IMG/VR virus record: IMGVR_UViG_3300020045_004025
Span: 1 to 38,632 of that record
Source of the DNA: a virus
Taxonomy: Duplodnaviria > Caudoviricetes
Length of the DNA: 38,632 bases
Direction: 5' to 3' (one strand)
In this document: positions 7,728 through 22,898 of the stretch, in pieces
How positions within the stretch are numbered: the first letter of the stretch is position 1
Layout: each line of letters opens with the position of its first letter
Program-made: the position numbers and the translations under genes
The notes under the pieces: generated by a model
Told to the model about the DNA's origin: nothing
Seen by the model: only the letters and a program-made list of their open reading frames with translations
Database searches by the model: none

Positions 7728-10449
7728 ACACGAATTAGAAATAGTTGGAATTGGTGCGCCTTTAATGTACGAAATTTGTGAGCCTATCGGTTTTGATGGT
7801 TTGCAATTTGAAACAGAGCAAGAAAGCAAACGTTTTGCACGTTCAATAAATTTCGGTGCGTTAGATAAGATTGAGTTTGTTAATGCAGTTGGAAACTTAG
7901 CAACTACACCACAAGTAAAAAATCAATTTGGCGATGTATCAGAATATTTAGATTATGGTTTAGAATGGCTTTTATACGGATTAGAACAACGAGGATTTGA
8001 ATTAGAAGCCTATTATCATTTATCAAAAGATGGTGTTTATTTTCCAAAAATGCAATTAGATTTTAGCGAAAAAGATATTACCGATGGTAAAGATTATGTA
8101 AGTTGTAAACTTATTGATATAGGTGTTATAATGGATTATAAACGTCAAGGCACTGAAATCTTTAACGCATTTAGCGACAAAGATTTTAAAGGCAATACCA
8201 TTACACCATTACCTACTTTTAACTATTTAAGACGTGCTACACCAGAAGAACAAATAAGTAAGTTTAAAGGGAATAATACAAGTGTTTCTGCAGAGGCGTA
8301 TTTTTCTTCTCAATTCTTATTTAGGTTTAATGTTTTAGCTAATAATTCGAATGTTGTTATTGAATCGGGAATAGAAAACACTTTATCTTTTTTAAGTCCA
8401 ACTATTGTAAAAGGTTCGGCACAAGATAATAACGGAATATTCAGACCTATTCCAGTTGATAGTGGTTCGTTTCAATTCTTTGAGGCAAAGAATGATTTTT
8501 CAAATACAACTATAAAGTTTAATAATATAAATGCAAGAGTAAGAGCGGTAAAAAACAACACAACTACAACAAACGTATTAACCGCTTCTGGAACTGCTAA
8601 ACTTATTTTATTAATAGGTGGTTTTGACTTAGCTACAGAGGGTTTTGATTATTACGAGTTATGGAATAAAGACTATAATACTATTACTGACTTTAATAAT
8701 GTTTTTACAAGTGTACCGAGTTCGTTAAGTATTACTATACCATTTGTTGAAAGAAGCAAAAGAGCGTATATATTTTTCGCTAATGATACTACTGCTACTT
8801 TCGATAATACAACCGATGAGGATTGTTTTGCAAGTATTCAAACCGAAGTTAACGCAATGGATATTGAAATAACCGCAACATCAACAGCAATAGATTCTGT
8901 TATTAAAGCGGTTAATTGGATTGATTTAATTAAACAAAGTTCAAAATATATTAGTAATTTACCGATTGATGCGCCTAAATTCGATGTAGGTGGCGAACAC
9001 TACAATAATGTAGTTTTTAATCGTAGAATGGTATCACAAAAAACTGACTATTTCAATGTTAAACCAAATGATGTTTTTGGAAGTGTTGAAGAAGTTTGTG
9101 CTGATTACGAAATTAATCGTAACGAAATATTTATCGATAGTTATGATAAATATTATACAAGTAATGAAATTGGAGTATTTGAGATAATACCAAGTAAAGA
9201 TTATCAAAGATATTACAACGACAGAGCGATGTTAAAATCGTTTAAATATGGTTATAAAACATATGAGCAAGAGCGTACTGCAGTCGGAACAAGTAATTCT
9301 ATTCACACAGAAAGCGAATGGTTATTACCAAACTTATTAGCAGACAATACAAAAGAAATTAATAATAATTTTGTACGTGATGCGTATTCTATTCAATCGA
9401 TAATAGATTTAGAAATTAAACAGCCAACAACGTCGACAAATGAAGATGACAAAGTTTACATTGAGGAATATGTAGCGTTGCAACCTAATAGCTTCGGAAC
9501 ATTCGGAGCAAGGTTATTAATGCGAATAGTAGGTAGTAATTTAGAAATACTAAACCGAGATAGCAATGGTGATAGCGGAAGCGTTGTAATAAATTGGGCT
9601 ATTTTAGGATTTAATGTTGGAGATAACTTTGAAATAACAAGCGGTGTAAACGTTGGTAATTATAGTGTTTTAGCTATTACAAATAGCGTTTTAACTTTAC
9701 AACCGATAGGTTTCACACCAGCTTTTTCAGGCGATGGATATATTAAAGTAAAATACTTCTATTCAAATGTAGCGTATCAAACGAGATTAACACAAGGAGT
9801 TATTTTACCATTAAACAACACGCTTTCAAGCATAAACTACTCAATCAAACGAAATATTTTGCGTTGGGGTTCGTGGATAGCCACTGCAATACTTTATAAT
9901 AAAACGTTATTAAAAAATACATTCTTTAAAAATAACGGAGCGTTTACAAGTCAATTAGTTGGAGAAAGCGCACCGATAACTGAAAACGCAAATGTAAATT
10001 ATACCGATTTAAACGAGCCAATTATTAACGCAAACGTGCATAATTTAAGTTTAGTAGCAAGTTATGAAAGCGTAGTTGATTATATGAACACTTACGCAAC
10101 CGACAGAGGTTTTGTGCGTTGTTATGATATGCAAGGAAATATAATCAAAGGTTACATACAAAAAAACGCATATAATCCATTTACAAAAGAATTTAATGTT
10201 ACATTAGAAGAAAAATATTATACGCCTTATTTGAATTTAACCTATACAAATGGTATATTAAACGTCGATGGAACTGATTACGATTTAGGCGGTGTTTCTA
10301 ATTGGTGGATATTTGAAAACAACTTCTTTAAAGTGTTTGATAAAAATAGTATTCCGATTTGTAACTTTTATAAATATAATTTTGTAATTTTGGATGGAAT
10401 TAGTTATACTACCAAACTTGATTTACAAAATGCCTTAATAGCATTATAA
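7720..10449 (+). CDS. Tail tip/hub structural protein
   Basis: 909 aa, beta-rich, directly after the tape measure gene. Confidence 0.65.
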   Translation: MYKHELEIVGIGAPLMYEICEPIGFDGLQFETEQESKRFARSINFGALDKIEFVNAVGNLATTPQVKNQFGDVSEYLDYGLEWLLYGLEQRGFELEAYYHLSKDGVYFPKMQLDFSEKDITDGKDYVSCKLIDIGVIMDYKRQGTEIFNAFSDKDFKGNTITPLPTFNYLRRATPEEQISKFKGNNTSVSAEAYFSSQFLFRFNVLANNSNVVIESGIENTLSFLSPTIVKGSAQDNNGIFRPIPVDSGSFQFFEAKNDFSNTTIKFNNINARVRAVKNNTTTTNVLTASGTAKLILLIGGFDLATEGFDYYELWNKDYNTITDFNNVFTSVPSSLSITIPFVERSKRAYIFFANDTTATFDNTTDEDCFASIQTEVNAMDIEITATSTAIDSVIKAVNWIDLIKQSSKYISNLPIDAPKFDVGGEHYNNVVFNRRMVSQKTDYFNVKPNDVFGSVEEVCADYEINRNEIFIDSYDKYYTSNEIGVFEIIPSKDYQRYYNDRAMLKSFKYGYKTYEQERTAVGTSNSIHTESEWLLPNLLADNTKEINNNFVRDAYSIQSIIDLEIKQPTTSTNEDDKVYIEEYVALQPNSFGTFGARLLMRIVGSNLEILNRDSNGDSGSVVINWAILGFNVGDNFEITSGVNVGNYSVLAITNSVLTLQPIGFTPAFSGDGYIKVKYFYSNVAYQTRLTQGVILPLNNTLSSINYSIKRNILRWGSWIATAILYNKTLLKNTFFKNNGAFTSQLVGESAPITENANVNYTDLNEPIINANVHNLSLVASYESVVDYMNTYATDRGFVRCYDMQGNIIKGYIQKNAYNPFTKEFNVTLEEKYYTPYLNLTYTNGILNVDGTDYDLGGVSNWWIFENNFFKVFDKNSIPICNFYKYNFVILDGISYTTKLDLQNALIAL

Positions 10450-16940: not shown

Positions 16941-16948
16941 TATATTTG
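16941..16948 (+). promoter_or_regulatory. -7 promoter element TATATTTG
   Basis: Consensus match directly after the endolysin stop. Confidence 0.6.
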
Positions 16949-16953
16949 CAGTA

Positions 16954-17038
16954 CTCATAATGCATAGTGTTTTTATAACACTTCATTAAACTACTAACAT
17001 TGGATTGAGGTGTCACTCGGTCGGTTAGTAGTTTTTTT
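16954..17038 (+). ncRNA. Candidate ~85-nt small RNA ending in an intrinsic terminator
   Basis: Promoter, then hairpin AGTGTT/AACACT, then a long hairpin AAACTACTAAC..GATTGAG/CTCGGTC..GTTAGTAGTTT with a U-tract; no ORF. Confidence 0.45.
16988..17038 (+). terminator. Intrinsic terminator after lysis genes
   Basis: 11-bp perfect stem 16988-16998/17024-17034 with a T-run. Confidence 0.75.
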
Positions 17039-17054
17039 ATATCTTATACCCACT

Positions 17055-17073
17055 ATTTAGACTAATTATAAAC
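17055..17073. promoter_or_regulatory. 19-bp palindromic operator ATTTAGACTAATTATAAAC
   Basis: One of five related boxes; starts 53 bp upstream of the -7 element at 17108. Confidence 0.65.
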
Positions 17074-17081
17074 TATATCAT

Positions 17082-17115
17082 TTTGTTATTAATATCAAAA
17101 TAAATGTTATATTTG
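17082..17115 (+). promoter_or_regulatory. Promoter (TTTG ... TATATTTG) driving the cassette array and accessory genes
   Basis: -33 TTTG at 17082-17085 and -7 TATATTTG at 17108-17115. Confidence 0.75.
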
Positions 17116-17125
17116 TAAAATAATT

Positions 17126-17240
17126 AACGTTTGGCAGCTTGGTGTCAGTTGCGGAATTTGAAAATAAATTTTTCTATTTAAGAAAAACGAACTTAGAAAC
17201 TATTATTAACCAAAAACAGCAATTGCACCAAACTGCTGTT
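17126..17240. mobile_element. attC-like recombination site 1
   Basis: AAC-GTTTG-GCAGCTTGGTGTCAGTTGC ... GCAATTGCACCAAACTGC-T-GTT; 115 nt with a bulged T and an inner sub-hairpin. Confidence 0.7.
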
Positions 17241-17256
17241 ATAAGTAGCTTTTATT

Positions 17257-17400
17257 ATGGAAAAACCAACTGCATACGAAAAGAATAACTTACCAATTGA
17301 AGTAAGGGAAAAGTATTGTGAAATAATTGAAAAATACCAATTGATTACGCATTACGAAAACGGAATAATAACAAAAGAGGAATTAATAAAAAAATTATGA
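17257..17400 (+). CDS. Cassette 1 ORF a (47 aa, hypothetical)
   Basis: Hand-translated MEKPTAYEKNNLPIEV...KKL; ATGA overlap with ORF b. Confidence 0.7.
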   Translation: MEKPTAYEKNNLPIEVREKYCEIIEKYQLITHYENGIITKEELIKKL

Positions 17401-17570
17401 AAAAGCCATTTAGTTTAAAAAGATTTTTAGTTCGATTATTACCAATATTTTTAGCAGAATTAATCGCTCCTTACATTGGAATAGTTGACACAATAGGAAA
17501 AGGAACTTATTATAGACTTTACGATGCTAAAAAATACGATGGAGCTGGTTTATTAGTTCGTCGCTCATAA
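17397..17570 (+). CDS. Cassette 1 ORF b (57 aa, hydrophobic N-terminal segment)
   Basis: Hand-translated MKKPFSLKRFLVRLLPIFLAELIAPYIG...RRS; the stop codon overlaps the cassette end box. Confidence 0.7.
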   Translation: MKKPFSLKRFLVRLLPIFLAELIAPYIGIVDTIGKGTYYRLYDAKKYDGAGLLVRRS

Positions 17571-17580
17571 AGTTACTTAT

Positions 17581-17705
17581 AACGTTCCGCTAGTACATCG
17601 TGGTACGGATAAGGATGCCAAATGTATCGGATAAACACAATTTATCCAAATACAAAACACTAATTAAATTAATCAATAATACCGTACTGCGTTGTACTAG
17701 CTGTT
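17581..17705. mobile_element. attC-like recombination site 2
   Basis: AAC-GTTCC-GCTAGTACATCGTGGTACGG ... CCGTACTGCGTTGTACTAGC-T-GTT; 125 nt; inner hairpin GGATAAA/TTTATCC. Confidence 0.75.
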
Positions 17706-17736
17706 AGCATTAGTGCGGTTCTTAAAACTGAATATT

Positions 17737-17940
17737 ATGAATTGCAGATGGATTGAAATAGATAAATTTGATTTTGAAAAAGAAACTGATTTTGATTGCT
17801 ATATTTTTATGGATAACAAAGTTGTAAAAGCAAAGTTTTTTAAAAATACGTTTTCTTTTAATTATGGTTTTTGTGGTAAAAAAGTACCAACACACGTTAT
17901 GAAAATTCCAATTCCAAAACAACCTAAAATATATTTTTAA
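17737..17940 (+). CDS. Cassette 2 ORF, DUF551-like protein (67 aa)
   Basis: ATG at 17737; starts WIEI and ends PTHVMKIPIPKQP, resembling DUF551 W-I...THWMPLPEPP. Confidence 0.65.
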   Translation: MNCRWIEIDKFDFEKETDFDCYIFMDNKVVKAKFFKNTFSFNYGFCGKKVPTHVMKIPIPKQPKIYF

Positions 17941-18007
17941 AACAAATTGTAGCATTGATGCTAACTCCTTTATACTCGCTATCAACCTATTTAAACCTAT
18001 ATAAACA

Positions 18008-18286
18008 ATGAATAAAAACTTTGACATAATAATTTACTCTAATTATTTTGAGTTAGAAAACAGAGTATTTGCTTTTAGAAAAAAGCAATTATTTGACATT
18101 ACCAATTTACCAACTTTAGTAAATTTAAAAGATAATAATAATTGTTTAGGATATTGGATTAATAGAAAATGGTTTACTTTGTCGAAATTAAATCTATTGA
18201 TTAAAAAAGAACAAAAAATAGTTGATGTAAGTAGTTTACAATGGTATCAACAAATAGAATTAGATTGTGTATTTAACTTAAATTAA
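18008..18286 (+). CDS. Hypothetical protein directly downstream of the cassette array
   Basis: 92 aa ORF with a GYWINRKWF motif. Confidence 0.75.
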   Translation: MNKNFDIIIYSNYFELENRVFAFRKKQLFDITNLPTLVNLKDNNNCLGYWINRKWFTLSKLNLLIKKEQKIVDVSSLQWYQQIELDCVFNLN

Positions 18287-22067: not shown

Positions 22068-22898
22068 ATGGAAAAAATAAAAGTAAATGACAAAGTTAAA
22101 ATAATTGATTCAGACCAATTGTACACTACTTACTCTTTAATGTTTAACAAATTAGGATTTATAAATAAAGAAGTAAATAGAAAGCCTGATAATTATAAAG
22201 ATTTAATTTTTAATGTTGAAAAAAAATCAAGACACAAAACAGAGCAAGTAATGCTTTATTTTATAAAATGTGGTAACGTTGAATTATTAATAAGTAAAAA
22301 AGGAATTGAGAAAGCCGAAAAAACATACACTTTAACAGAAACATTCGTAAAAGAACTATGCAAAGAGCCAAATATTAAAGAGGCGTTTGTTAGAGAGGGT
22401 ATTGTTGAAGAAGAAAAGTTGGAAGTTGGGAAGTGGTATAAAGATACAAGAAGTGGGTCTGATGGTTTATTTTTCTTAGAAGAAATAAAAGACCATAAAA
22501 CAAATGGAATGAAGTCTTATGGATTTACAATGACAAATAAATGGGATTATTCAGCATATAGAAGTAACGAAGTTTTTAATAAACATATGCGTTTAGCCAC
22601 ACCACAAGAAGTAGAAAATGCTTTAATTTCGGAGGCTAAAAAGAGAGGCTTTGTTGATGGTATTAAATACAGAAGTCCGGAAATAAAAATTATAAATACT
22701 TGCAATAATAATTTTAGTTTTGATTTTTCTATAAATACATTATATAATAATGGTATAGCTATTTTTAGAAAAGGAACTTGGGCTGAAATAATAGAAGAAA
22801 ACCGCACAATTGAAATCCCTTTAAAAGATATTTTAGCAACTCCGAATAGTTACGAGTTAGGCGAAATGGTTAGAAAATTAGCAAATGATAAGTTATGA
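22068..22898 (+). CDS. Hypothetical multi-module protein
   Basis: 276 aa; modules LEVGKWYK, RLATPQEV and EAKKRGF...GTWAEII. Confidence 0.8.
   Translation: MEKIKVNDKVKIIDSDQLYTTYSLMFNKLGFINKEVNRKPDNYKDLIFNVEKKSRHKTEQVMLYFIKCGNVELLISKKGIEKAEKTYTLTETFVKELCKEPNIKEAFVREGIVEEEKLEVGKWYKDTRSGSDGLFFLEEIKDHKTNGMKSYGFTMTNKWDYSAYRSNEVFNKHMRLATPQEVENALISEAKKRGFVDGIKYRSPEIKIINTCNNNFSFDFSINTLYNNGIAIFRKGTWAEIIEENRTIEIPLKDILATPNSYELGEMVRKLANDKL

Follow-up and report, generated by a model that had tools for sequence, protein, structure and literature searches.

An integron-like cassette array with a candidate promoter-distal insertion site in a tailed phage, and related arrays beside tyrosine recombinases of Bacteroidota

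RESULTS

The phage and its array

The DNA analyzed (the window) was the 38,632-nt IMG/VR record IMGVR_UViG_3300020045_004025. This 38.6-kb tailed-phage contig carries a 121-nt terminal repeat, and scans against PHROGs and Pfam identified genes for capsid, portal, terminase, tail, endolysin, Erf, NinB, and NinG proteins. The closest annotated matches across the array locus were weak ones to Flavobacterium phages, and the phage presumably has a Flavobacterium-type host. The original prediction was that the locus is an integron-like cassette array in a phage without an integrase. The lack of an integrase was borne out: no tyrosine recombinase was found among the 67 window ORFs with PHROGs and Pfam, and a six-frame search of the window with PF00589 gave no match, while 14 of 14 control genomes matched. 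Because CheckV put the completeness of the window at only 51%, the absence of a recombinase from the phage rests on the 121-nt terminal repeat. Five other array-bearing phage records searched also had no PF00589 match.

The array has two attC-like sites, exactly where they had been predicted. Site 1 (17126..17240, + strand, 115 nt) consists of AAC, a 4-nt bulge, a stem, an A-rich loop, the returning stem, and GTT; site 2 (17581..17705, + strand, 125 nt) was recognized by folding, by pairing, and by our site finder. The site finder, an ad hoc tool that does not catch every site, reported only these two in the window; in 60 shuffles of the window the mean was 0.017 sites, and no shuffle had two of them less than 1.5 kb apart. 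Folded as single-stranded DNA and compared with shuffled sequences, site 1 had z values of −2.7 (+ strand) and −3.1 (− strand), and site 2 had z values of −5.0 (+ strand) and −3.2 (− strand). Generic repeat finding did not pick the sites out of the AT-rich noise, and Rfam matched neither site, its only matches in the window being three chance snoRNA matches elsewhere.

Cutting after AAC gives two units. Cassette 1 (17129..17583, + strand, 455 bp) has two ORFs, of 47 amino acids (17257..17400, +) and 57 amino acids (17397..17570, +); neither matched a family in PHROGs or Pfam, and the second had no usable Atlas match. Cassette 2 (17584..17965, + strand, 382 bp) has one ORF of 67 amino acids (17737..17940, +), for which a DUF551-like small phage protein is a lead (Atlas score 0.89, with PF04448 on 29% of the matched cluster); the protein itself had no Pfam match. 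As predicted, the complementary ends are cassette specific: the ends of the same cassette pair at 14 of 15 and 12 of 14 positions, versus only 5 of 15 and 7 of 14 for the arms that face each other in the array. Scripted circular junction forms fold into a single long stem, interrupted by a 4-nt bulge after AACG, with + strand energies of −27.2 and −30.5 kcal/mol, compared with −18.6 and −24.2 kcal/mol for the sites in the array. Six of the eight mispairs on the + strand are G-T (counted by eye), the others being one C-A and one T-T, and the stems contain one bulged T besides. These data support the claim that the + strand is the folding strand. By the definitions of Nivina 2016, the + strand of the window corresponds to the bottom strand of integrons, and attI should be to the right.

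Just 5′ of the array lies a putative Bacteroidota-type promoter element (17082..17115, +), TTTG ... TAnnTTTG. We take this to be the Bacteroidota promoter motif. In three other loci (L309, L316, and L328) the motif likewise stands ahead of the leftmost site detected, and a promoter-like motif lies before the proximal end of the array in the cultured phage mumin6-1. A scan of the window for sigma-70 promoters found 15, with 11 expected. Promoters carried by the cassettes on the coding strand were considered and rejected, TAnnTTTG being present there in 1 of 114 phage sites; on the other strand it occurs in 20 of 114 sites versus 13 ± 3.4 in shuffled loops. Farther upstream, positions 16941-17040 hold a second TAnnTTTG motif followed by a hairpin that ends in a T run; this element, kept in L018 and L020, is possibly a small RNA or the terminator of the lysis operon.

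At the promoter-distal end of the array is an attI-like site (17962..17983, +; discussed below), and fixed directly behind it is a gene for a beta-rich protein of 92 amino acids (18008..18286, +). A chain of sites lies directly upstream of this gene in 24 of 28 loci, and three of the four exceptions have short flanks. The structural model of the protein had a pLDDT of 85, and its best fold match was to the N-terminal part of I-HmuI (Z 3.3). Considered as a possible accessory factor, it has no Pfam family and no solved relative, and it is unrelated to the Muminvirus gene at the corresponding position. Other small genes lie directly behind the attI-like site in L112 (1397-1594, −) and in L016 (about 7785-8020); by eye, their products look like ribbon-helix-helix or helix-turn-helix proteins.

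The site family

Sites of the same pattern were collected from phages (114 unique sites) and from bacterial hosts (222 sites, up to 3 of them from L190, which belongs to an unpublished genome). On the strand that reads from AAC to GTT, the mispairs in the phage sites were 170 G-T versus 71 A-C, and this strand was the better folder in 106 of 114 phage sites and 205 of 222 host sites. Of the 81 phage sites that are 110 to 130 nt long, 52 were aligned; they gave a covariation of 0.547 versus 0.146 when shuffled, with none of 500 shuffles as high; the value was at most 0.136 once the pairing partners were slid. One G·T pair is fixed, being found in 50 of the 52 aligned phage sites and in 201 of 222 host sites, and another aligned position is often C·A (26/52). 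The ends of a cassette pair with each other at 10.1 of 12 positions on average, compared with 6.7 of 12 for in-array arms (n = 85; 75 cassettes higher, 5 lower).

The asymmetric spacer (5 nt versus 1 nt) that the prediction listed as a difference from classical integrons is indeed present; it is a 4-nt bulge that belongs to the whole family: the R′ arm has a 4-nt excess in 190 of 222 host sites as well. No conserved bulge was found on the L″ arm among the 114 phage sites. Site lengths cluster at ∼124 to 128 nt, with minor classes near 60 to 90, 155, and 190 nt, and this tight clustering may reflect a constraint of helical phase or protein binding. The loops of both phage and host sites bear A-tract repeats.

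Gene direction differs between the two groups. Phage cassette genes are reversed relative to the classical strand in 85 of 86 cases, but in host arrays genes are on the classical strand in 80 of 89 cases (20-locus set). Thus, although the hairpin does lie upstream of its genes, as predicted, the layout is better read as the normal polarity from hairpin to attI with the genes reversed. We rejected the idea that this layout arose from host cassettes inserted in inverted orientation, because the polarity of the hairpins relative to attI is identical in phages and hosts. Three host arrays (L276, L292, and L143) hold runs of cassettes with the phage-type, reversed gene direction. In 29 of 85 phage cassettes the longest ORF starts within the hairpin, so that the 3′ arm of the stem encodes the N terminus.

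Cassette turnover between fixed flanks

Comparison of related phages at the locus, proposed as a check with the original prediction, revealed different cassettes between conserved flanks and breakpoints at AAC. Two contigs, L001 (found again as L017, L099, L110, and L306) and L003 (also L095, L108, and L308), share the window's sequence as far as the AAC at 17128 and then from the AAC at 17963 onward; between these shared flanks are wholly different cassettes, at least six in L001 and three in L003. The left flank (17054-17128) is kept at about 90 to 97% in L001, L003, and L015, and the right flank, starting at 17962-17963, is 93 to 95% identical to L001, L002, and L003 (L002 and L015 are possibly the same phage). 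The right-hand site is common to L002, L011, L105, L106, and L300, each with other arrays. The left junction at AAC is missing in L016, L018, L019, and L020.

In a public sequencing run (X2, from the same study as X1), one sequence (record 3) matched window positions 17580-17965 with 10 differences and stood between the end of a different cassette and the start of a different hairpin, so that cassette 2 recurs in another array with precisely its predicted ends. In two further runs, X9 and X11, the cargo of cassette 1 is followed by different hairpins. Together with the relocated unit of a cultured phage described below, these comparisons uphold the prediction of mobile, integron-like cassettes with AAC breakpoints. 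In L011, X6, and X9, similar cargo ends occur with a different upstream hairpin; the same cargo with different hairpins means that exchange away from AAC also occurs.

No circle back-joints were found in the contigs of 8 public runs, which are of other samples and each cover ≤0.12 of the words, a result that decides neither way. Nor was an empty platform found among 4 viral left-flank, 13 viral right-flank, and 6 metagenome right-flank matches, of which 7 of the 13 viral right-flank matches and one left-flank match are free of sites and look like chance.

Some sites were irregular. In two successive sites of L002 (600-1450), AAC is separated from the stem by the same folded, GC-rich insert of ∼160 nt, which is either a nested element or an assembly artifact. 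In mumin6-1 (L112, 5356) and mumin6-4 (L114, 4850), both on the minus strand, the few bases right after the GTT of one site differ, and only those of mumin6-4 would pair with the end of the same cassette, which suggests that template switching repaired the end or that the hairpin was swapped.

The attI-like site and the direction of insertion

The site at 17962..17983 is where identity to related phages resumes. A matrix was built on the attI sites of 13 of the 16 host loci that bear sites, a rule in the script having dropped the other 3. It ranked 17963 first among 77,220 positions, with 16.7 bits. The near tie was 22858 on the − strand, with 16.3 bits; this runner-up (22838-22858, −) is a short palindrome within the ORF at 22068-22898, with no hairpin site adjoining. 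The matrix likewise gave its highest score to the end of the array in L001, L003, L011, and L105. The distal sites of Muminvirus, Lillamyvirus, L009, and L016 were not among its top matches. An attI-like site with a family-specific motif lies at one end of the array, and we infer that it functions as attI.

Cultured lytic Flavobacterium phages (L112 and L114 to L118) bear arrays with the same site grammar, and those of Muminvirus and Lillamyvirus have 9 to about 14 sites each. A 439-bp unit that is in the middle of the array in lillamy9-1 is at the distal fixed site in lillamy9-7, letter for letter. The two phages are identical there over a 444-nt block bounded on either side by ATAAC, and the old position of the unit was rejoined precisely. 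The most proximal cassette is gone from lillamy9-7 as well, the cut being at AAC. Among five distinct arrays of the Mumin/Lillamy type, the proximal cassettes are common and the distal ones are all different. The relocation and these differing distal cassettes indicate that entry is promoter-distal, contrary to the predicted promoter-proximal insertion, as does the attI-like site at the right end of the window's array. In the window's own family, shared cassettes are nearly absent (one pair, 77%), and the polarity here is therefore read from the attI motif and from the other phages.

Host arrays and their recombinase

A pattern derived from the sites matched about 2,900 stretches in GTDB genomes. 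The 120 matches listed were mostly in Bacteroidota, with some chance matches. Within this set, 65 cases of genes between successive sites (2 of the 65 from L190) included 55 on the classical strand, and a tyrosine recombinase was on the attI side in 5 of the 80 loci with flanks.

The array-linked host recombinases match PF00589 and PF13495. They fall below the cutoff of TIGR02249, with a match broken into two parts between which model positions of about 182 to 240 are left out, and the host enzyme has ∼20 residues where VchIntIA (2a3v) has ∼62, being about 43 amino acids shorter there. By both comparisons, the I2 insertion of IntI is missing from the host enzyme. A profile of three such recombinases (E ≤ 1e−70) found the enzyme in 74 of 121 genomes of the genus Flavobacterium. 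Of the 76 matches, 20 were fetched, chosen for long contigs. A recombinase next to homologous host arrays had been suggested as something to look for, and sites lie directly 3′ of it in 15 of these 20 loci, one site being on the other strand; the remaining 5 loci have no site, 2 of them having short flanks. No sites were found around three other Xer-type genes. Comparison of 86 phage cargoes with 181 host loci gave only distant or partial matches and no near-identical cargo, suggesting, as far as these sequences go, that the phage and host cassette pools are largely separate.

DISCUSSION

We conclude, with a probability of about 80%, that the window contains a phage-borne array of two cassettes with a distal insertion site that is recombined by a host tyrosine recombinase, integron-like and without I2. 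At the level of sequence comparison, the units, their AAC boundaries, the relocation to a distal site, and the association with hosts are established. The Bacteroidota host enzyme would act on the + strand sites of the phage array, with cassettes passing through circles and entering at the fixed promoter-distal site (17962-17983); transcription would presumably start at the upstream promoter-like element. The linkage of the recombinase to host arrays favors the predicted host tyrosine recombinase as the likely catalyst. The literature holds I2 to be essential, which counts against an I2-less enzyme: in the available text of Escudero 2020 and Smyshlyaev 2021 (PMC8138268), recombination of folded sites is tied to I2. 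The folding strand is the locally G-rich strand in the window, in mumin6-1, and in P12002L, and if that strand were the lagging-strand template, excision would be favored (compare Loot 2017, as far as its available text goes). The skew also tracks the coding strand, and so this idea is hypothetical.

It is improbable that the cassettes are moved without any site-specific enzyme, by the phage's own homologous recombination or by hairpin-assisted replication slippage. The phage does encode Erf-like, NinB, and NinG proteins, hairpin swaps happen in or close to stems, and slippage without integrase deletes small cassettes in integron assays (PMC5371416, in the part available). However, the relocated lillamy unit shares only a core of about 5 to 7 nt at both ends and was reinserted, slippage accounts for loss but not for reinsertion, and the distal site resembles the host attI. 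Such processes probably contribute to the hairpin swaps only.

About equally improbable is a different enzyme, namely, a canonical IntI, the host's XerC/D, or the recombinase of a coinfecting phage or a prophage. The core is the AAC/GTT of integrons, and association with arrays is no proof of catalysis. Yet of six phage sites, only the P12002L site that has the same grammar failed to recombine with IntI1 (PMC9892861), IntegronFinder 2 reportedly gave only one complete integron in Bacteroidetes, and the three other Xer-type loci lack sites. That the stems are only signals for mRNA processing or stability (RNase III, for example), with the variation due to ordinary moron exchange, is very improbable: the phage folding strand is the coding strand (85/86), and so stems would form in mRNA too, but host sites have the same strand polarity (G·T in 201/222, bulge in 190/222) with genes on the other strand (80/89), the end complementarity spans the cargo, the breakpoints are at AAC, no Rfam family matches, and the AAC-precise relocation of the lillamy cassette contradicts it. 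A secondary RNA role of the stems beside recombination is possible.

Beyond recombination of the phage array by a host enzyme, we lean toward a wider proposal, with less assurance: that there is a second, phylum-wide integron family in Bacteroidota, whose I2-less enzyme works on folded single-stranded DNA sites and reads the 4-nt bulge and the fixed G·T. Lytic phages, carrying a copy of the host attI and their own pool of back-to-front cassettes, would have their accessory genes, antirestriction methyltransferases for example, reshuffled by the host enzyme in the course of infection. If this is true, folded-strand cassette recombination occurs without the helix thought to have enabled it, and a natural I2-less enzyme offers a direct test of how integrons arose. 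About six of ten sampled Flavobacterium genomes would carry a gene-capture system that current integron screens have missed, and the variable regions of small genes and methyltransferases in lytic Bacteroidota phages would be the product of host-catalyzed shuffling. Cultured phage-host pairs exist: Muminvirus and Lillamyvirus on Flavobacterium sp. LMO6 and LMO9.

The literature searched, in which subscription papers and bioRxiv supplements were thinly covered, contains no description of this site family. The claim of an undescribed system stands in that respect, but not for phage-borne sites as such. Qi et al. 2023 (PMC9892861) reported phage CALINs, clusters of attC without integrase, in virulent phages. 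One of their sites, attC1 of Polaribacter phage P12002L, called by HattCI, has the same grammar as the window's sites. In the available text, two sites are called in P12002L (our site finder gives 10) and treated as ordinary attC, attC1 failed with IntI1, and neither the site family nor the reversed orientation of the genes is described, nor is an attI or a cognate enzyme. According to the available text of Ghaly 2021, the integron-bearing phyla include Bacteroidota. Smyshlyaev 2021 (PMC8138268) defined an "integron-like" subgroup of simple tyrosine recombinases; the part available describes the insertion as essential to integron function and mentions no cassette arrays for members without it. 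The variable methyltransferase region of Muminvirus and Lillamyvirus (PMC7077304) belongs to the same cassette system as the window. Nilsson 2020 linked a difference in a methyltransferase, possibly a cassette gene, to plating efficiency; the words "integron," "cassette," and "integrase" do not occur in the main text.

Compared with classical integrons as described in the available parts of Nivina 2016 (PMC5027507) and Cury 2016 (PMC4889954), the arrays are alike in their AAC/GTT core, the breakpoints at that core, the complementary ends specific to each cassette, the imperfect hairpin with a G·T bias on one strand, the tandem arrangement, the single attI-like entry at one end, and, on the host side, the adjacent tyrosine recombinase. 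They are unlike them in several ways. The host recombinase is not an IntI with I2 and is oriented toward the array; where classical sites have conserved extrahelical bases and a roughly symmetric central spacer, these have a fixed G·T and, on the R′ arm, a 4-nt bulge; and in phages the genes are reversed, off the top strand, and the entry site is promoter-distal. Because the arrays work in an integron-like way but differ in three defining features, namely, the extrahelical bases or symmetric spacer, the top-strand genes in phages, and the IntI with I2, we regard them as a variant of integrons and not as a classical member.
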